UHGV virus genome: UHGV-1520160
Reading direction: 5' to 3' (one strand)
Length of the DNA stretch: 39,030 bases
Origin: a virus
The notes beneath the pieces were generated by a model, which had not been told where the DNA came from, did no database searches, and saw only the letters and a program-made list of their open reading frames with translations. Positions 6,902 through 21,069 of this stretch are shown piece after piece. The position numbers were made by a program, and so were the translations under genes. Position 1 is the first letter of the stretch. Each line of letters begins with the position of its first letter.

Positions 6902-7291
6902 TTAGGTTTGCTCACCTTGCGATCGAATCCGACCCTTCATGTACTTCTCGTACAGCTCATCTAACTCTTTCAGGCGAAGCGCAAAAATGCGGAGCATGTT
7001 CTGCTGCTCTTCTTCCGGTAACTGGCGGTAGAGCTCGAGCAAACGCTGTTCGTCCGGTTTGAGACCGTCTTTCTCCCCAACGTCTTCACCGAGTAGCCAG
7101 GCGACAGAAATACCAACAGCGTCGGCTATGGCCAGTGCCGATTTCTTACTAATCACGCCTTTTTTGAACCAGCCGTTTACGGCCTGAGGGGTGACTCCAG
7201 CTATTCTTGCCATGTCTGCTTTGGTAACGCCGCGATCAGTGATCTCAGTAAGGCGCTCCACCAGAACGAGGTTGGGTTCTTCTTTTCTCAT
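6902..7291 (-). CDS. prophage repressor, DicA/RacR-type HTH (XRE family), no S24 peptidase domain
   Basis: ORF 6902..7561 trimmed to the ATG at 7291 (MRKEEPNLVLVERLTEITDRGVTKADMARIAGVTPQAVNGWFKKG...). C-terminal LLELYRQLPEEEQ resembles the DicA C-terminal segment from memory. Divergent from a Cro-like gene. Confidence 0.7.
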   Translation of the reverse strand: MRKEEPNLVLVERLTEITDRGVTKADMARIAGVTPQAVNGWFKKGVISKKSALAIADAVGISVAWLLGEDVGEKDGLKPDEQRLLELYRQLPEEEQQNMLRIFALRLKELDELYEKYMKGRIRSQGEQT

Positions 7292-7393
7292 ATGGTCATT
7301 GTAAATATTTGGTTTATGCACGCAATAAATCCAAAGTTTGCATGAAGTATAAATCTGTGGTTTACTTCTGCTATCAATAAGCAGGAGAAGCAC
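7292..7393. promoter_or_regulatory. immunity-region intergenic: divergent promoters with repeated operator-like motif TAAAT-N5-GGTTTA
   Basis: gtaaatatttggtttatg at 7301..7318 and taaatctgtggtttac at 7350..7365; a third copy gtaaatctgaggtttatg at 5873..5890 lies upstream of the leftward operon. Confidence 0.5.
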
Positions 7394-7612
7394 ATGTCCG
7401 CACTCGATAAAGCAATTAAAGCCGCTGGCTCTGCCAGAAAGCTCAGCATCGCGCTTGGTGTGACGAGTATGTCTGTAAGTCATTGGAAGAATCGTGACCA
7501 AGGGATCGTCCCGCCAAGCTATATCTTCCCGATTTTCAAAATGACAGGCGTAACCCCCCACGAGCTGCGCCCTGATCTCTATCCAAATCCCACTGACGGA
7601 TTACCAAAGTAG
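7394..7612 (+). CDS. Cro-like HTH regulator (YdaS-type)
   Basis: 72 aa, HTH segment ARKLSIALGVTSMSVSHWKNR, conserved ELRPDL near the C-terminus; divergent from the repressor; RBS ggagaag upstream. Confidence 0.65.
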   Translation: MSALDKAIKAAGSARKLSIALGVTSMSVSHWKNRDQGIVPPSYIFPIFKMTGVTPHELRPDLYPNPTDGLPK

Positions 7613-7623
7613 GAGCACTGACA

Positions 7624-8181
7624 ATGCAAACACTTTCTTTTCAACAGAATAACAGAGCGCCATCAGAGCACCTGAAATTCCAGTATCAACACAGTGAGGC
7701 TGAAGGCCAGCCGGTCGATCACCGGGCTATCTGTTCTGCCGTCCGCGCCTGGGCGGCGGCAGAGGGCCGCGTGGCGGTCGCTCTGGCGATTAAAGAGGCT
7801 GCCGAACAGGCCGAGCTTGACAGCATTGACATGACCGGCAGCGCCGATGTGTGGAACGTGAAGCTGTTTCGCTGGCTGGACAACCACGAGAAATCACCGG
7901 CCTACCGGGCGAACGTCGAGCAGCTGGCGCCGGTAATAATTTCGGTTCTGCCGCTGGCGTACCGGGATCGCGTGATTAAGCACGACTGCTTTGCGGTTCG
8001 TGTCGCCAGGTCGGTGAAAGAAGACGCTGAGGCGATACAGGCTGTCGTCCTCAAAGCCCCCAGACACGAACGGATGAAGGAAATCAGCGAGAGCATCGTA
8101 GCCAAGCTCTACCTGGACGGACCTGATTCTGTGGCGCCCATTATGGCGATGGTTACAACGATGCTGGGTGGTGCGCTATGA
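7624..8181 (+). CDS. YdaT-like protein at the cII position
   Basis: 185 aa ORF immediately after the Cro-like gene, the same order as racR-ydaS-ydaT in Rac. Family call from gene order and loose recollection. Confidence 0.4.
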   Translation: MQTLSFQQNNRAPSEHLKFQYQHSEAEGQPVDHRAICSAVRAWAAAEGRVAVALAIKEAAEQAELDSIDMTGSADVWNVKLFRWLDNHEKSPAYRANVEQLAPVIISVLPLAYRDRVIKHDCFAVRVARSVKEDAEAIQAVVLKAPRHERMKEISESIVAKLYLDGPDSVAPIMAMVTTMLGGAL

Positions 8182-8265
8182 CGGGCTCAGAAATGGCGAA
8201 AGCCGCGGTGCTCGAACACCAACGGCTTTCAGGTGCAAAAACTGTGCGTAATTGCGGAGAACAGT

Positions 8266-9177
8266 ATGTCAAATACCGCTGAAATATTCAAATTCCCCAC
8301 ACAGCAGGGGAAACAGGAGAGCAGCATGGCTGAACTGGAGAAAGGCTATTTGCGCCTGGCCAACCAGATTCAGGATGCCCTGTGTATCGTCGAACTATCC
8401 GGGCGCGAGTTCCGGGTGCTGAATGCTATCGTTCGTCTGACCTATGGCTGGTCTAAGAGTTCTGACCGCATCGCCAATAGCCTCATTGCAGATAAAACGA
8501 CGCTGAAGGTGAAACACGTCTCTGAAGCCGTGTTGAGCCTTGCCTATCGGAACATCATCATCCTGCGCCGCATTGGGCAAACCAGATACATAGGGATTAA
8601 TACCAGCCTGGATAAATGGGCGTATACCAAGCCAAATTGCATGAAGTGTCCAGCGGTGTTTCCTGCTGCTGAAGTTGTCACATGGGTTATTACCATCCCT
8701 GAATTCAGGGATAGCAATTTTACCCCTTCAATCATCCCTGAAAACGGGGATAACCATCCCCAAAAACAGGGAGAGGTATCCCTGAAAACAGGGAACACCA
8801 AAGACATTCTTCCAAATACAAATATAAATACAGATCTAACCCCCTCTAATCCCCCAAAGGGGAAGGGTAAGTTTGACCCGCTGACGATTCCCGTTCCTGA
8901 GTGGCTTGATTCTGTGTCCTGGAGTGAGTGGGTGGCCTACCGCCAACAGTCTGGCAAAGCCATCAAGACCGAAATGACGGTCACCAAAGCATTCAAGTTG
9001 CTCAAGGCTTGCCTGGACGCTGGGCATGACCCCGTTGATGTGATCAACACCAGTATCGCCAACGGGTACCAGGGACTGTTTAAACCGAAGTTCGCTCTCA
9101 ACGCTCGCAAAACGGGCAGGGATGTGAACCGCATTTCTGAGCCAGACAAAACAATCCCACCCGGATTCAGGGGGTAA
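8266..9177 (+). CDS. replication initiation protein, lambda O-like N-terminal domain
   Basis: ORF trimmed to the ATG at 8266 (GGAGA RBS). N-terminus MSNTAEIFKFP...ELEKGYLRLANQI...SGREFRVLNAIVRLTYGWSK matches recalled lambda O (MTNTAKILNF...DLDDGYARLSNML...RQFKVLLAILRKTYGWNK). Iterons lie inside the gene. Confidence 0.8.
   Translation: MSNTAEIFKFPTQQGKQESSMAELEKGYLRLANQIQDALCIVELSGREFRVLNAIVRLTYGWSKSSDRIANSLIADKTTLKVKHVSEAVLSLAYRNIIILRRIGQTRYIGINTSLDKWAYTKPNCMKCPAVFPAAEVVTWVITIPEFRDSNFTPSIIPENGDNHPQKQGEVSLKTGNTKDILPNTNINTDLTPSNPPKGKGKFDPLTIPVPEWLDSVSWSEWVAYRQQSGKAIKTEMTVTKAFKLLKACLDAGHDPVDVINTSIANGYQGLFKPKFALNARKTGRDVNRISEPDKTIPPGFRG
8695..8795. repeat. replication origin iterons: four copies of palindromic ATCCCT-N4-6-AGGGA, followed by an AT-rich stretch
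   Basis: atccctgaattcagggat 8695..8712; atccctgaaaacggggat 8734..8751; atccccaaaaacagggag 8756..8773; atccctgaaaacagggaa 8778..8795. AT-rich run caaatacaaatataaatacag at about 8813..8833. Same layout as ori-lambda inside O. Confidence 0.65.
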
Positions 9178-14886: not shown

Positions 14887-15303
14887 TTAAGGGAGGGTTT
14901 TCATTACGCTATCAATCTCCCTTCCTTCAAATCTTGAAGTCCAGCCGCAGGAGCCGCAATGGTAAGGAAAGTCATCGAACCCGCTACCGACCTGTTTAAG
15001 ACAGTTGGGGCAATAAACCGCGCTGATATACCCACCCGCGGGATTTTTTCTAAAGGCCGCACCCATGTGCTCGACAAACTCATCCTTTGCCCGATAAGCC
15101 GCTATTTCCTTCTCAAGTTCTACGTTCTTGGCTTTCGCCTCGGCAAGTTCTGCTATGGTGGCAGCATGGGCTTTTTGAAGTACGTCGATCTGCTCTCCAA
15201 TGAAAGCGATGCGCTCGCGCAGGACCTCGTTACTTTGCACAGCAGAAAGCGCGCCGATCCCGTTTTTAAGGGACGCGATAAGTAATCCTACATCCATGGT
15301 CAT
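14887..15303 (-). CDS. coiled-coil protein with C-terminal zinc ribbon (138 aa), convergent to late transcription
   Basis: ORF track; heptad-rich middle (IAELAEAKAKNVELEKEIAAYRAKDEF), C-terminal CPNC...CGSC; ATGA coupling to the upstream 69 aa ORF. Confidence 0.5.
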   Translation of the reverse strand: MTMDVGLLIASLKNGIGALSAVQSNEVLRERIAFIGEQIDVLQKAHAATIAELAEAKAKNVELEKEIAAYRAKDEFVEHMGAAFRKNPAGGYISAVYCPNCLKQVGSGFDDFPYHCGSCGWTSRFEGREIDSVMKTLP

Positions 15304-15509
15304 TCCCTAATTGTCTGTGGAATGACCAATTTAGCAATTTCCTTTGTCTGTGGAAAGCAGGGAAACCACGCGCCGGGCGTGGATAAATATCCCGGTATTG
15401 AATCGACTGTTGGCTGCCGCTTGGCGGCCTTTTTCATTTCAGGCTCACGGGAATCATCCGCTACGTGCTTTGTTGATAAATCCAGCCCGTGAAGCCTGAG
15501 CCTTTTCAT
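15300..15509 (-). CDS. hypothetical small protein (69 aa), possible partner of 14887..15303
   Basis: ORF track; weak Shine-Dalgarno, so the start is uncertain. Confidence 0.3.
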   Translation of the reverse strand: MKRLRLHGLDLSTKHVADDSREPEMKKAAKRQPTVDSIPGYLSTPGAWFPCFPQTKEIAKLVIPQTIRE

Positions 15510-15547
15510 ACACGCACAGCGCCATCCGAAAAATCGGAGGTGAGGCT

Positions 15548-15826
15548 ATGACCAGAATGAGCACCATTTACAGCAGACTTTCATATGGAACAGGAACCAC
15601 GCTGACCGGCTGCGGTGTATCAGCGAAGGCATATGCCGAAACAGCTAAAACAGCAAAAGAGGTGTCCTGGATGTTGGCCGACAGAATTGCAGGGTTAAGC
15701 CTGAGCGACTGGGCAATTATTGTCGGTATCGCATGCACGGTAATCACCTGTGCAGTGAACTGGTATTTCCGCTGGAAAGAACGGGAGGATCGGCGCAATG
15801 GCTATGTCTCTAAAGCTGAAGAATAA
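15548..15826 (+). CDS. holin (class II / pinholin-like)
   Basis: 92 aa; hydrophobic helices (WAIIVGIACTVITCAVNWYF) followed by a charged tail (RWKEREDRRNGY); immediately upstream of the lysozyme. Confidence 0.65.
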   Translation: MTRMSTIYSRLSYGTGTTLTGCGVSAKAYAETAKTAKEVSWMLADRIAGLSLSDWAIIVGIACTVITCAVNWYFRWKEREDRRNGYVSKAEE

Positions 15827-16346
15827 ATTGAGCGCAGCGGTCGTTGGTTTGATTCTTGCCGGGGCTTCCGCACCCGTGATTCTCGATCAGTTTCTGGATG
15901 AGAAAGAGGGTAACAGCTTGACAGCATATCGCGACGGCGGCGGACTCTGGACCATTTGCCGTGGTGCAACAATGGTTGATGGCAAGCCAGTAGTACAGGG
16001 CATGAAGCTGTCAGCTGAGAAATGCGCCCAGGTAAACGCCATTGAACGCGACAAGGCGCTGGCGTGGGTTGACCGAAATATCAAAGTACCACTGACCGAA
16101 CCACAGAAAGCGGGTATCGCTTCTTTCTGCCCATATAACATCGGCCCCGGAAAATGTTTCCCGTCTACGTTCTATAAGCGAATTAATGCTGGCGATACGA
16201 AAGGAGCCTGTGAAGCTATCCGCTGGTGGATTAAAGACGGTGGCCGCGATTGCCGCCTGACCAAAGGCCAGAAGAATGGCTGCTATGGTCAGGTTGAGCG
16301 ACGGGACCAGGAAAGCGCGCTGGCGTGCTGGGGGTTAGACCAATGA
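15798..16346 (+). CDS. phage lysozyme (GH24 family) with N-terminal signal-anchor (SAR endolysin)
   Basis: Catalytic motif EKEGNSLTAYRDGGGLWTICRGAT (E...D...T of T4/P21-type lysozymes); N-terminal hydrophobic LSAAVVGLILAGASAPVIL; GGGAGG RBS. Confidence 0.8.
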   Translation: MAMSLKLKNKLSAAVVGLILAGASAPVILDQFLDEKEGNSLTAYRDGGGLWTICRGATMVDGKPVVQGMKLSAEKCAQVNAIERDKALAWVDRNIKVPLTEPQKAGIASFCPYNIGPGKCFPSTFYKRINAGDTKGACEAIRWWIKDGGRDCRLTKGQKNGCYGQVERRDQESALACWGLDQ

Positions 16347-16858
16347 AAATTAATCCGGGTCTTATAGGCGTTGTTGTTATTGCTGTCCTTTCGGTCGCTC
16401 TCGCTAAGAGTTGCTCCAACGCCAGTCGCCTTCAGAGCGATAACGACGTTCTGCGAAGTGACAACTCTATGCAGGGGCAGGTGATCGCCACCCAGGCATT
16501 CAACTTCAATCGATTCAATCAGGTTGCAGAACATGCCAACAGGCTAAACTCCCTGATCGACACCAGCACCGAAGAAACTGTAATCGAATACCGGGAGATT
16601 CTCCGCCGTGAAAAAACCTGTGATCTGCCTGTTCCTGCTGACATTGCTGGTGGGCTGCTCGAATACGCGTACCGTTTACGTTCCAGCGCAATGCACGCCG
16701 ATACCGACGGACCTGACGCAGCCGATGATAGTACCGCTGCCGCCGGCTCAATAACGTACTGCCAGGCTGTACTCTGGATTAAGCCGCTGCTGGCCGTGAT
16801 TGAAAAGGGCAATAACAATTTCGCTGGAATTCGTCAAATAGAGAGCGAGCGTCAATAG
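16343..16858 (+). CDS. Rz-like inner-membrane spanin
   Basis: ORF 16325..16858 trimmed to the ATG at 16343 (ATGA overlap with the lysozyme stop); N-terminal TM (LIGVVVIAVLSVALA) and coiled-coil body. Confidence 0.65.
   Translation: MKINPGLIGVVVIAVLSVALAKSCSNASRLQSDNDVLRSDNSMQGQVIATQAFNFNRFNQVAEHANRLNSLIDTSTEETVIEYREILRREKTCDLPVPADIAGGLLEYAYRLRSSAMHADTDGPDAADDSTAAAGSITYCQAVLWIKPLLAVIEKGNNNFAGIRQIESERQ
16608..16754 (+). CDS. Rz1-like outer-membrane lipoprotein spanin embedded in Rz (+1 frame)
   Basis: Manual translation from GTG at 16608: (M)KKPVICLFLLTLLVGCSNTRTVYVPAQCTPIPTDLTQPMIVPLPPAQ; lipobox LVGC and Pro-rich mature part; GGGAG 10 nt upstream. Confidence 0.6.
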   Translation: MKKPVICLFLLTLLVGCSNTRTVYVPAQCTPIPTDLTQPMIVPLPPAQ

Positions 16859-16861
16859 TCT

Positions 16862-16908
16862 TTATCCCTAGCAAGGGATAAAGCAACCATTATCCCCGCT
16901 AAGGGATA
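16862..16908. repeat. two tandem palindromes TTATCCCT-AGCA-AGGGATAA and TATCCCC-GCTA-AGGGATA resembling the ori iteron half-sites
   Basis: ttatccctagcaagggataa at 16862..16881 and ttatccccgctaagggata at 16890..16908; compare ori iterons ATCCCT...AGGGA at 8695..8795. Confidence 0.4.
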
Positions 16909-16965
16909 GGCGTTACAGCAGACACTCACCTAATGCCTGTTGCCATTCAGCCAAGGAGCCAGCCT

Positions 16966-17211
16966 ATGAAAAAAGTTAAAGTTACAATTGCTCACCTTGA
17001 AGAGCACTACGAGGGTATTGTTCGAGCCGCAAACGTCACATTCCAGGTTATTCAGAATGAAAGTGTGATAGTGAAGGATTCTTTATCCGGTAAAGCTTCC
17101 CATCCCTTCACTAAAATTTACGCTGTCGATGTTGATGAATCAGCTGTACATGTGATGCATGATCGGCCTGATTTGAGCTGGTTAACAATTACAGCAGAGC
17201 TTGTTGAATAG
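16966..17211 (+). CDS. hypothetical protein (81 aa)
   Basis: ORF trimmed to the ATG at 16966 with AAGGAG RBS. Confidence 0.4.
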   Translation: MKKVKVTIAHLEEHYEGIVRAANVTFQVIQNESVIVKDSLSGKASHPFTKIYAVDVDESAVHVMHDRPDLSWLTITAELVE

Positions 17212-17270
17212 TATTTATTTTGCAGCTTCAATTGCTTAGCATTATCTCCGGGTACCCAAAGGAGATAAAT

Positions 17271-17492
17271 ATGTTTGTTGCAGAAGGCTTGAAGCCTGAC
17301 CTTGATAATATAGGTTGGGTTATGGGGTGGGGGGTTGTAAGGAATGCCCCGTGGCATTTAGTCGGTGTTTACGCCACCAAAGATGTGGCCGAAACTAAGG
17401 CAGCCTCACTAGGTGAGGGCTATGAAGCCAATTATGGCTCACATCGGTTAGGCTCTGACGACTTCATCCACCACAACTTCACGCGCAGTTAA
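17271..17492 (+). CDS. hypothetical protein (73 aa)
   Basis: ORF trimmed to the ATG at 17271 with AAGGAGA RBS; followed by a terminator. Confidence 0.4.
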   Translation: MFVAEGLKPDLDNIGWVMGWGVVRNAPWHLVGVYATKDVAETKAASLGEGYEANYGSHRLGSDDFIHHNFTRS

Positions 17493-17514
17493 CAAAAGAA
17501 GTTGTTCGATATTT

Positions 17515-17540
17515 AGCCTCGCTTATGCGGGGCTTTTTTA
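17515..17540 (+). terminator. rho-independent terminator
   Basis: agcctcgc-ttat-gcggggct hairpin (one mismatch) followed by tttttt. Confidence 0.5.
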
Positions 17541-17652
17541 TGCGCATCGCACGCGCACACCGTAGAAAGTCTTTCAGCTGTGAGCCTGGGCAAACCGTTA
17601 ACTTTCGGCGGCTTTGCCGTGCGACAGGCTCACGCCTAAAAGGAAATATTCC

Positions 17653-17904
17653 ATGAGTAACAAAATCATTACGCTATCTGGCGCTGCTAATGAAGTGCTT
17701 TATGCGCTGTTTTTCCGTGGCGCGTTGCTGTCTGGTGATCTGCCTTCTAAATCTGGCACAGCCGAATTGCGCGAGCTTGGTTTTGCTGAAACCAGACACA
17801 CAGCAACTGAATACCAGAAAGAAAATCACTTTACCTTTCTGACATCAGAAGGGCAGAAATTTGCCGTTGAACACCTGGTCAATACGCGTTTTGGTGAGCA
17901 GTAA
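17653..17904 (+). CDS. hypothetical protein (83 aa)
   Basis: ORF trimmed to the ATG at 17653 (AAGGAAA RBS). Confidence 0.4.
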   Translation: MSNKIITLSGAANEVLYALFFRGALLSGDLPSKSGTAELRELGFAETRHTATEYQKENHFTFLTSEGQKFAVEHLVNTRFGEQ

Positions 17905-17916
17905 TATTGCGCTTCG

Positions 17917-18381
17917 ATGACGCTTGGCGTTGAGATTGATACCTCTGCTGCACAAAAGGCAATCGACGAGCTGGACCAGCGCATTCGTGACACCGTCTCC
18001 TTCGAACTTATTCGCAATGGAGTGTCATTCATCAAGGACGCCGCTATCGCAAATGGTGCTATCCACGCAGCGGCAATCGAAACACCTCAGCCGGTGACCA
18101 ATATCTACAACATCAGCCTTGGTATCCAGCGTGATGAGCCAGCGCAGAACAAGGTAACCGTCAGTGCCGATAAGTTCAAAGTTAAACCTGGTGTTGATAC
18201 CAACATTGAAACGTTGATCGAAAACGCGCTGAAAAACGCTGCTGAATGTGCGGCGCTGGATGTCACAAAGCAAATGGCAGCAGACAAGAAAGCGATGGAT
18301 GAACTGGCTTCCTATGTCCGCACGGCCATCATGATGGAATGTTTCCCCGGTGGTGTTATCTGGCAGCAGTGCCGTCGATAG
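17917..18381 (+). CDS. hypothetical protein (154 aa) immediately upstream of cos
   Basis: ORF track; no clear Shine-Dalgarno; start uncertain. Confidence 0.35.
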   Translation: MTLGVEIDTSAAQKAIDELDQRIRDTVSFELIRNGVSFIKDAAIANGAIHAAAIETPQPVTNIYNISLGIQRDEPAQNKVTVSADKFKVKPGVDTNIETLIENALKNAAECAALDVTKQMAADKKAMDELASYVRTAIMMECFPGGVIWQQCRR

Positions 18382-18439
18382 TGTGCAATTGATAATTATT
18401 ATCGTTTGCGGGTCCTTTCCGGCGATCCGCCTTGTTACG

Positions 18440-18626
18440 GGGCGGCGTCCGCGCAGATTCTCGCTATTTATGAAAATTTTCTGGTTTATGCCATTTCCGT
18501 TCTTCTTCTTGTTTACTCATTGTTTTTGTTAAAAACGTCCTCTCTCCAGAAAGGAAATGCTGAGCAAGGAAAACGGAAGTTTACCGTTGATTGTTTCCTT
18601 TCTCTGTTTTTTGCCAGGAGTAAGCC
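18440..18626 (+). other. cos site: cosN cohesive-end sequence GGGCGGCGTCCG (18440..18451) and cosB-like region up to nu1
   Basis: Aligns by eye with recalled lambda cos (acg|GGGCGGCGACCT|cgcgggttttcgctatttatgaaaattttccggttta...); window has acg|GGGCGGCGTCCG|cgcagattctcgctatttatgaaaattttctggttta. Present as an uncut junction. Confidence 0.7.
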
Positions 18627-19172
18627 ATGGAGGTTAACAAAAAACGCTTATCCGAAATTTTCGGGGTAAGCGTCCGAACGATTCAGAACTGGCAGGAGCA
18701 AGGTATGCCGGTTGTCCGCGGTGGTGGCAAAGGTAATGAGGTTCTCTTTGAATCTGCTGCTGCAATCGAATGGTACAGTGCGCGCGATGCAGCTATAGAA
18801 AATGAAAAGTTGCGGAAGGAAGTTGAAGATCTCCGTATCGCTTCTGAGTCCGATCTTCAACCTGGCACGATTGAATATGAGCGACACCGACTTACGCGAG
18901 CTCAGGCTGACGCTCAGGAATTAAAAAATGCAAAAGAGTCCGCTGAAGTGGTGGAGACCGCATTCTGCACGTTCGTGCTGTCGCGGGTAGCCGGAGAAAT
19001 CGCCAGCATTCTCGATGGAATACCTCTGTCGGTTCAGCGGCGCTTCCCGGAGCTGGAGAACCGACATATTGATTTCCTCAAGAAGGACATCATTAAGGCC
19101 ATGAACAAGGCAGCTGCGCTGGATGAAATGATACCGGGGTTGCTGAGTGAATATATCGAACAGTCAGGTTAA
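18627..19172 (+). CDS. nu1: terminase small subunit (lambda Nu1-like)
   Basis: MEVNKKRLSEIFGVSVRTIQNWQEQGMPVVRGGGKGNEVLFESAAAIEWY...LSEYIEQSG is near-identical to recalled lambda Nu1. Confidence 0.95.
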   Translation: MEVNKKRLSEIFGVSVRTIQNWQEQGMPVVRGGGKGNEVLFESAAAIEWYSARDAAIENEKLRKEVEDLRIASESDLQPGTIEYERHRLTRAQADAQELKNAKESAEVVETAFCTFVLSRVAGEIASILDGIPLSVQRRFPELENRHIDFLKKDIIKAMNKAAALDEMIPGLLSEYIEQSG

Positions 19173-21069
19173 GGGGCTGCAGCACTCTGCGCGGGCGGGG
19201 TTACGTTCGCTGTACCGGCCGCAACCGCAAACAGCAGTTGAATGGGCAGATGAGAATTATTATCTCCCGAAAGAGTCTGCCTACCAGGAAGGGCGCTGGG
19301 AAACACTGCCATTTCAGCGTGCAATTATGAATGCGATGGGTAATGACTATATTCGCGAGGTGAATGTCGTTAAATCGGCTCGTGTCGGCTACTCAAAAAT
19401 GTTGCTCGGCGTTTACGCATATTTCATCCAACATAAACAGCGTAACTCCCTAATATGGTTACCAACCGACGGTGATGCTGAAAACTTCATGAAGTCTCAT
19501 GTAGAACCGACCATTCGTGATATTCCGACGTTGCTGGCGCTTGCTCCCTGGTACGGTAAAAAACACCGGGACAATACGCTGAGCATGAAGCGTTTCTCGA
19601 ATGGTCGTGGTTTCTGGTGCCTGGGCGGTAAGGCTGCAAAAAACTACCGTGAAAAATCAGTTGATGTGGCTGGCTACGACGAGCTCGCCGCTTTCGATGA
19701 TGACATCGAGAAAGAAGGTTCTCCCACCTTTCTGGGTGATAAGCGTATTGAGGGTTCTGTATGGCCGAAATCCATTCGCGGATCTACACCGAAAGTCAAA
19801 GGTACGTGCCAGATAGAAAGAGCTGCTAAGGAGTCTGAACATTTTCTTCGGTTCCATGTTCCATGCCCACACTGTGGGGAAGAGCAGTATCTGAAATTCG
19901 GTGATAAAGAGACACCATTTGGCTTCAAATGGTCTCCGGGAGAACCTGCCAGCGTTTACTACCTCTGTGAACACAATGCCTGTGTGATTAAACAACAGGA
20001 GCTGGAATTTCTGGAGGCCAGGTATATTTGTGATGAAACAGGTATCTGGACACGAGACGGCCTTAACTGGTTTTCTTCATCCGGTACCGAAATTGAACCT
20101 CCTGACAGCGTTACATTCCACATCTGGACCGCATATAGCCCGTTCACAACCTGGGTGCAGATCGTCAAGGACTGGATAAAAACAAAAGGTGATACGGGTA
20201 AGCGAAAAACTTTCGTTAACACGACCCTGGGCGAAACGTGGGAACCGAAAATAGGTGAACGACCCGATGCTGAAGTTTTAGCGGAACGAAAAGAGCACTT
20301 TGAAGCGTCTGTGCCGGAGCGAGTGGCATATCTGACAGCGGGTATTGACTCCCAGCTTGACCGTTACGAAATGCGTGTTTGGGGATGGGGGCCGGGAGAG
20401 GAAAGCTGGCTTATCGACAAAATTATCATTATGGGTCGTCATGATGATGAGTCGACTCTCGCTCGAGTTGATGAAGCGATCAACAGGACGTATAAGCGCC
20501 AGAACGGTCTCGAAATGGTTATATCCCGCACTTGCTGGGATATTGGCGGCATTGATCCCACCATCGTCTACAACCGCTCAAAAAAACACGGTCTGTTTCG
20601 TGTGATCCCTATAAAGGGGGCGTCGGTTTATGGAAAGCCAGTGGCGAACATGCCACGCAAGCGTAACAAGAATGGTGTTTACCTCACAGAGGTAGGAACA
20701 GACACCGCAAAAGAGCAGATTTATAACCGTTTCACGCTGGTGGCGCAAAGAGACGAGCCGCTGGCGGGAGCGGTTCATTTCCCGAATAACCCAGAAATCT
20801 ACGATCTAACAGAGGCCCAACAACTAACAGCTGAAGAGCAGGTGGAAAAATGGGTAGACGGAAAGAAAAAGATCGTCTGGGACAGCAAAAAACGACGAAA
20901 TGAGGCGCTCGATTGCTTTGTTTATGCACTGGCGGCGCTGCGTATAAGCATATCCCGCTGGCAGCTAAATCTTGATTCACTTCTGGCCAGCCTGCTGGAG
21001 GAAGAAGGCAGCCGTAACAATAACAAGACCCTGGCGGATTACGCGCGGGCATTATCTGGAGATGAATAA
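19147..21069 (+). CDS. A: terminase large subunit (lambda gpA-like)
   Basis: 640 aa, collinear with recalled lambda A (…[37 protein letters not shown]…); overlaps the nu1 3-prime end as in lambda. Confidence 0.95.

Follow-up and report, generated by a model that had tools for sequence, protein, structure and literature searches.

Directly behind the Rz-like gene of virus genome UHGV-1520160, analysed here as a stretch of 39,030 nucleotides (the window), lie two palindromes that we read as an orphan pair of HipB-type operator sites, probably bound by the HipB protein of the host. From the sequence comparisons described below, we put the probability of this reading at roughly 0.55. Site 1 (TATCCCTAGCAAGGGATA, positions 16863-16880) and site 2 (TATCCCCGCTAAGGGATA, positions 16891-16908), neither assigned to a strand, both fit the HipB-operator consensus TATCC-N8-GGATA exactly. 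They are separated by a 10-bp linker, AAGCAACCAT (16881-16890, also unstranded), which sets their start-to-start spacing at 28 bp and is akin to the linkers of other phage pairs, for instance AAGCAACCCT in locus L134.

The palindromes lie on a mosaic joint

The initial annotation had described two adjacent palindromes after the lysis genes, and both are present in the sequence. The first, P1, can be read as ttatccctagcaagggataa / TTATCCCTAGCAAGGGATAA at 16862-16881, and its perfect dyad extends to 16860-16883 with arms CTTTATCCCT and AGGGATAAAG; the second, P2, can be read as ttatccccgctaagggata / TTATCCCCGCTAAGGGATA at 16890-16908. Together they form a direct repeat. The consensus is matched exactly twice in the whole window, in both cases within 16863-16908, and the origin iterons of the same window do not match it. 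A 17-mer of site 2 recurs as the first site of the pair located upstream of a gp60 homologue in Klebsiella sp. I138 (L032).

The preceding Rz-like i-spanin gene (16343-16858, + strand) is annotated as an Rz-like spanin in phage mEp237, with 99.9% identity; by analogy with the annotation of phage LLS, an o-spanin gene is embedded in it at 16608-16754. As its TAG stop codon occupies 16856-16858, P1 begins 3 nt past the stop: the palindromes are indeed close behind Rz, at a distance slightly shorter than the 4 bp first given. The remark that they are not simple terminators also stands, for neither palindrome is followed by a T-run and the terminator scan reports nothing at the pair; an intrinsic terminator at this place was accordingly rejected. 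The promoter scan of the window found no sigma-70 promoter within or beside the pair. By eye, the linker offers a single -10-like sequence, CATTAT, whose -35 element is poor.

Some other identities were set aside. P2 (TTATCCCCGCT) bears what we take to be a resemblance to the CRISPR I-E repeat; this reading was dropped because the family consensus does not retain the resemblance and the 28-bp period is too short to accommodate spacers. CsrA-type GGA sites, DnaA boxes and partition sites, which fit the palindromes poorly, were dropped as well.

The Rz stop codon at 16856-16858 is at the same time the upstream boundary of a mosaic segment. Phages HK225, Flotzy, LLS and PHB10 have Rz in common with the window, but their homology stops at the Rz stop codon, and beyond it they carry unrelated sequence without palindromes, which assigns the palindromes to the downstream segment. 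On the + strand this segment carries two small genes without known function: a gp60-like gene (16966-17211, 81 aa, phrog_2571), with a Shine-Dalgarno sequence AAGGAG at 16953-16958, and a gp61-like gene (17271-17492, 73 aa, phrog_4280). This two-gene cassette is closed by an intrinsic-terminator-like hairpin found by the terminator scan at 17515-17534 (+ strand), with an 8-bp stem containing 6 GC pairs and then TTTTTAT. The palindrome pair is thus the 5' edge of a gp60-gp61-terminator cassette. An earlier suggestion, that the palindromes might be a recombination scar, agrees with this position exactly on the mosaic joint. In LR536430, an 11-bp deletion takes out the ATG at 16933, upstream of the gp60-like start. 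Searches of Pfam, NCBIfam and PADLOC returned no domain for gp60 or gp61. The Ser/Thr kinase that Flotzy carries in the same slot was considered as a HipA and rejected, being a Hanks-type Pkinase instead.

Over the late region, the window and mEp237 agree at about 99.9% identity; their early regions differ. In the window, positions 6902-8181 encode an immunity region of the RacR/YdaS/YdaT type, with Pfam matches to an HTH_3 repressor, YdaS_toxin and YdaT_toxin, and not of the lambda cI/cro/cII type. Upstream of the lysis genes, positions 15357-15434 give a weak isrK-like match (21 bits, under the gathering score) and end in a strong terminator (15412-15429) shortly before the holin gene; the segment looks like the Q-dependent late leader (pR'/tR') of a lambdoid prophage. 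Downstream of the cassette, a phi80-like protein that is a single 301-302-aa ORF in L018 and L087 is distributed over two ORFs, 17614-17904 and 17917-18381: its N-terminal part corresponds to 17653-17904, and its C-terminal part has a weak Phage_Tail_Tip match. This split may be due to a frameshift or to a mosaic replacement relative to gp62/gp63 of mEp237.

The pair matches the operators of hipBA

A viral-contig scan for the pair returned a diverged three-copy array with a 28-bp period (L018); looser scans of viral contigs then gave further pair loci. A scan of one genome per species yielded 21 loci, most of them composed of 2-5 dyads at 28 bp. The genome arrays directly precede a gene whose product starts with MIYSPxQLAN..., an HTH_3 protein, followed by a gene for a Couple_hipA/HipA_C kinase: this gene pair is hipB-hipA. 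Such arrays precede hipB-hipA in many Gammaproteobacteria, and the distance between neighbouring dyads is 28 bp in 24 of 30 cases.

In E. coli, HipB binds cooperatively to four operators with the consensus TATCCN8GGATA, and an O1O2 oligonucleotide, TTATCCGCTTAAGGGGATATTATAAGTTTTATCCTTTAGTGAGGATAA, has its two sites 28 bp apart (PMC3376134; PMC3920265). The native hipBA promoter has the order O4 -28- O3 -39- O2 -28- O1, then 21 nt to the ATG of hipB. The window sites, starting at 16863 and 16891, reproduce both the 18-bp dyad and the spacing of O1-O2 and O3-O4. What they do not reproduce is the context, since they lie outside any hipB-hipA promoter and overlap no detected core promoter.

Orphan pairs are widespread in phages

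We scanned the viral contigs of IMG/VR for two TATCC-N8-GGATA sites 8-12 bp apart, i.e. over 5 gap lengths. The pair occurs in more than 119 contigs, with 93 distinct sequences among the matches listed. Of these 93, 71 have a spacing of 28 bp, 21 of 27 bp and 1 of 30 bp; no pair shows 26 or 29 bp, both of which the pattern permits. At the positions left unforced (T before the site, C6, C/T7 and T8), the phage pairs favour the same bases as the hipBA-linked sites, a reference set biased in that its search pattern fixes some inner positions in two sites per locus. A hipA gene is found nearby in only 1 of 125 loci, namely the E. coli hipBA locus itself.

As a control, we searched viral contigs for a pair built on the Shewanella HipB operator, GTGTA-N6-TACAC, which has equal information content, over 27 gap lengths. 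It gave 55 heterogeneous loci with no preferred spacing and no common context, against the more than 119 loci over 5 gap lengths for TATCC-N8-GGATA; the comparison serves as a rough control of abundance only.

With a handful of query proteins, an endolysin, spanin, HNH or terminase gene could be located no more than 3 kb away for at least 52 of the 93 pairs, and at least 6 pairs directly abut a spanin stop codon, like the window pair. The genes that come after the pairs are varied: small ORFs of phrog_6581, 698, 4567, 571 and 10509, an HNH gene and a zinc ribbon, with no HTH protein among those adjoining a pair. Homologues of three products encoded after other pairs (MSDIYQ..., MQDYLL... and MKSLKI...) are absent from the window. 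We propose that the cassette would have spread among temperate phages of enterobacteria and their relatives, detached from hipBA, and that its usual place would be the accessory-gene slot that separates the lysis genes from the packaging genes, with differing small genes behind it.

Three loci illustrate the range of arrangements. L092 (6960-7110; also L079, L125, L140 and L170) has a clearly regulatory layout: a promoter-like sequence, TTTACA-N15-TATACT, is overlapped by the LexA-box-like sequence CTGTATGTATATCCAG, and is followed by a TATCC-N8-GGATA pair, a Shine-Dalgarno sequence and a 62-aa gene (phrog_698). This suggests a dual control, by the SOS response and by a HipB-type regulator, of a small phage gene. 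In L053, a second pair with 28-bp spacing (1439-1484) stands upstream of a 440-aa gene with a weak pectate-lyase-like match, and the gp60 homologue of the same contig has only the hairpin described further below; the pairs are therefore not bound to one cargo gene. In the GC-rich viral contig L021 (6020-6058), two dyads of the form (G/T)ATCCC-N4-AAGGGATA follow each other with a 31-bp period inside a unit that is repeated exactly; a small membrane-protein gene immediately precedes them, and ClpP-protease, terminase and portal genes lie downstream. They are possibly a distant relative of the cassette outside enterobacteria.

The sites behave as DNA half-sites

Both palindromes can fold as RNA, P1 into a 10-bp stem of -13.6 kcal/mol and P2 into a 7-bp stem of -7.7 kcal/mol, and the region is transcribed along with the late operon. 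This is what one would expect of hairpins on the late transcript, be it a processing site, a stabiliser or a terminator devoid of a T-run. The variation of the sites, however, speaks against it: across 139 distinct sites, positions 6/13, 7/12 and 8/11 pair as often as shuffling predicts (P = 0.59, 0.78 and 0.70, respectively). The absence of covariation, and with it of the compensatory base pairs of a structured RNA, argues for a protein site on DNA and against an RNA hairpin. Many family members have a non-complementary N8, and P1 of L052, TATCCCCAGTAAAGGATA, retains the consensus with only five pairs left in its stem. An Rfam scan of positions 15000-19500 of the window and of nine related loci gave just weak, unrelated matches, and known RNA families were discarded on that account. 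Adding the missing T-run, we hold an RNA function of the palindromes to be very improbable. The arms behave instead as two independently varying half-sites of a putative protein-binding dyad.

Conservation and loss of the pair

In close relatives the palindromes are conserved: mEp237, Phi06_2987 and seven complete E. coli genomes carry them without a single difference. Between the window and the more distant L052, none of 20 consensus positions is changed, against 16 of 87 for all non-consensus intergenic positions (Fisher one-sided P = 0.027), a within-lineage test that rests on few substitutions, as the close relatives are all identical at the sites. The N8 segments account for 4 changes in 16 positions and the linker for 2 in 10. 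A further variant, L014, has its changes confined to N8 and linker bases. In the Klebsiella prophage L032, and likewise in L177, the stop codon of an unrelated Rz gene lies inside the first site; the two sites are 28 bp apart and a gp60 homologue follows.

The pair is nonetheless often missing. Among 16 loci sampled for gp60 homologues, L052 alone has it directly upstream; pattern scans add L032, L177 and L014, and in L059 and L060 neither the pair nor the neighbouring RNA hairpin precedes the gp60 homologue. For a sample free of ascertainment, we took 51 distinct upstream regions of the phrog_6581 family, one of the frequent downstream gene families: 8 contain an intact pair, 3 a near-intact one and about 9 a single site, the remainder being decayed or unrelated. 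Phages can thus do without the cassette; in many of them, and perhaps in this one, it may be neutral.

These losses bring up the alternative that the pair has no function and is a remnant of a hipBA-type promoter or mobile regulatory cassette, one that came along with gp60/gp61 by illegitimate recombination and has yet to decay. The frequent loss, halving or mutation of pairs in homologous contexts, the many gp60 homologues that do without them, the place of the window pair exactly on the mosaic joint, the negative promoter scan and the decay of the adjacent hairpin element in both the window and L052 would all agree with a relic. A relic is, on the other hand, hard to reconcile with the sequences that do persist: L052, L014, L032 and L177 vary at N8 and linker positions and not in the consensus, 92 of the 93 distinct pairs listed have a spacing of 27-28 bp, and the motif pair is far commoner in viral contigs than the control dyad pair. 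We regard a pure relic as fairly improbable, and keep the reading of the palindromes as HipB-type operators.

A link to the replication origin is not supported

The initial annotation had linked the palindromes to the origin, on the grounds that ATCCC(T)/(A)GGGAT half-sites are common to both, and the likeness is confirmed. Four ori iterons of the type ATCCCTGAAAACGGGGAT lie at 8695-8800, within the Phage_rep_O gene (8233-9177), and the window contains 6 occurrences of ATCCC-N3-12-GGGAT where 0.27 would be expected, so that the observation is real and not due to chance. The palindromes could in principle be extra sites of the O-like initiator, for copy control or as a secondary origin; the half-site of 6-7 nt, (T)ATCCCT/AGGGAT(A), that they have in common with the iterons is the evidence for it.

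Geometry and the comparison with relatives speak against this. The iterons, like those of lambda-type origins, are inverted ATCCC/GGGAT half-sites: 18-bp dyads with a 6-bp spacer (ATCCCT GAATTC AGGGAT), four of which, roughly 22 bp apart, form an array within the O gene. In the palindromes the spacer is 2 bp shorter (ATCCCT AGCA AGGGAT); there are two copies, at 28-bp spacing, in the interval from Rz to a small gene and 7.7 kb away from the O gene, and not an array of about four repeats with an AT-rich region at the initiator gene. Nor does their sequence track the initiator type across relatives. Phage mEp237 has palindromes identical to those of the window together with phi80-type iterons, TTCCCGAAAACGGGAA (TTCCCG/CGGGAA), and contains no ATCCC...GGGAT site of this kind besides the palindromes. 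Among the complete E. coli genomes searched, 4 contain the ori segment of the window and 7 the palindromes, with no genome containing both. In L052 (88% identical), the right arm of P1 is AAGGAT, so that AGGGAT is gone, and TATCC/GGATA is retained. Across the 93 distinct phage pairs among the matches listed, position 6 is C in just 69%; the family-defining unit is therefore TATCC/GGATA and not ATCCCT/AGGGAT.

Both the additional initiator sites and the second origin were therefore rejected, on geometry and on the lack of association with O type, and we consider them extremely unlikely. The 6-mer common to palindromes and iterons is best regarded as a coincidence arising from mosaic reassortment. 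The regulatory proposal fared differently in its two halves: control of the downstream small genes is compatible with the data, and the O-like initiator as the binder is not supported by them. Recognition of the HipB-type consensus would replace a misleading, origin-related interpretation of the window, and it predicts a specific binder.

Candidate binders and mode of action

No HipB or HipA homologue is found in the window by tblastn, and a phage-encoded HipB or HipA was rejected as the binder. The regulators that the window does encode are a CI/RacR-like HTH_3 protein, YdaS, YdaT, O and Q, and its immunity region contains no TATCC-N8-GGATA site. Neither gp60 nor gp61 was retained as a candidate: they have no recognised domain, pairs also stand before many genes unrelated to them, and the majority of gp60 homologues have no pair. 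On the host side, 4802 of 5426 complete E. coli genomes (88%) contain hipB, and in Enterobacter soli ATCC BAA-2102 a hipBA locus with its operators (L034) coexists with an orphan pair in a prophage (L041). Taken together with the lack of HipB and HipA in the window, this makes host HipB the most economical candidate.

The same E. soli strain offers a natural system for cross-talk: L034 has four operators before hipBA, and L041 has the order Rz - small gene - pair - HNH - terS. A different configuration occurs in E. coli strains of the L109 type, in which hipB and most of hipA are deleted and all four hipBA operators are fused directly to the 3' end of hipA (L109 7235-7347; L261 2050-2160). Full or partial matches to the hipBA operator region are found in 5392 of the 5426 complete genomes, against 4802 for hipB.

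We infer the following course of events, from HipB binding to its physiological effects. Dimers of a HipB-like Cro/C1-type HTH protein would bind both sites on double-stranded DNA, host HipB being the likeliest such protein and HipA its co-repressor. The bound complex would block or dampen transcription into gp60/gp61 as a roadblock; alternatively, it would retain HipB-HipA on phage DNA. As no promoter was detected near the pair, classical promoter repression is not claimed.

The main rival to host HipB is another protein of the same specificity, such as an XRE-family regulator of this or a co-resident prophage, or a host factor, which would control the accessory genes in its place. Many phages have the cassette without hipBA, and distant HipB-like HTH matches lie several kb off in L139, L161, L180 and L070; moreover, sites are carried by the GC-rich L021 and by non-enteric assemblies, where a HipB of the E. 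coli type may not exist. Against it, the window encodes no HipB-like protein, its own RacR/CI-like HTH_3, YdaS and YdaT regulators have no such site in their immunity region, the genes adjoining pairs are diverse and never HTH, and HipB is the sole protein tied to this consensus in the literature searched. Such a protein is an unlikely binder, if a credible one, and host HipB remains our preferred candidate.

A more specific role would be to aim the orphan pairs at host hipBA itself, as a DNA sponge for HipB-HipA or as a sensor of the HipB level. As a sponge, the amplified phage genome would hold HipB-HipA, shield HipB from Lon and keep the HipA kinase silent during lytic growth; as a sensor, it would let accessory-gene expression follow the host HipB level and hence the host's dormancy switch. 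Operator DNA slows the degradation of HipB by Lon in vitro, to a half-life of more than 200 min (PMC3376134), and HipA-family kinases were recently validated as anti-phage defences (PMC13092281), which gives a rationale for a phage counter-measure. The literature searched contains no operator-DNA decoy of an antitoxin, and we consider either role quite improbable.

If HipB does bind, the regulon of a chromosomal toxin-antitoxin regulator would extend, so far unnoticed, to prophages. Binding would also account for a sequence that recurs, hitherto undescribed, where the lysis and packaging genes of enterobacterial phages meet. The hipBA persistence and defence module would in that case have many phages connected to it or interfering with it, and persister biology and phage-host conflict would be joined through a simple, testable element.

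A covarying hairpin neighbours many pairs

Between the pair and the gp60-like gene, the window contains a decayed copy of another element (16911-16948, + strand), recognised by alignment with intact copies. Its consensus is CATTA-CA-[9-10 bp stem]-GA-TAATG, roughly 40 nt long, on the sense strand of the late region. The window copy retains the left part, CGTTACAGCAGACA, and has lost the right outer arm, with TGCCATT in place of GATAATG; L052 likewise lacks that arm. Intact hairpins are found in L051, L053-L058, L061-L066, L018, L020, L068, L085 and many other loci, directly upstream of operator pairs or small genes. The hairpin adjoins many pairs, and it stands alone upstream in 14 of the 16 sampled gp60-homologue loci.

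The stem of this hairpin covaries strongly (e.g. A-T 17 / C-G 7 at one position, G-C 15 / C-G 8 at another). It contains G-U pairs and is therefore strand-specific; its mean folding energy is -20.3 kcal/mol in the sense and -15.5 kcal/mol in the antisense orientation. There is no Rfam match to it. The hairpin could be an RNase III site or a protein-binding site, and, whatever the role of HipB, it is a candidate new phage RNA motif.

Comparison with known systems

As a cassette, the segment headed by the pair resembles the morons, which are reportedly accessory gene cassettes of lambdoid phages: it consists of functionally uncharacterised small genes set between lysis and packaging genes, with an intrinsic terminator and sharp mosaic boundaries. 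A classical moron has its own promoter. Here the scan detects none, and repressor-type operator sites stand at the 5' edge instead.

As binding sites, the palindromes are closest to O1-O4 of hipBA, with which they have in common the exact consensus, the 28-bp pairing, the flanking T and the inner C, C/T and T preferences; palindromic 18-bp sites also suit a dimer of a Cro/C1-type HTH protein. They differ in that the window has no hipB or hipA, one pair instead of two, and no detected overlap with -10 and -35 elements; the pair is found in a lambdoid late region after Rz, ahead of unrelated small phage genes.

HipB sites beyond hipBA are known from the E. coli chromosome, in the relA, eutH and fadH promoters (Lin et al. 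2013, as relayed in PMC10305079). As far as that account goes, these too are HipB-type palindromes controlling genes other than hipBA; they belong to host promoters, whereas the window sites are phage-borne and paired at the native 28-bp spacing. The literature searched holds no description of phage-borne HipB-type sites. HipB sites in host promoters outside hipBA are known, and the novelty would lie in orphan operator pairs carried by phages.
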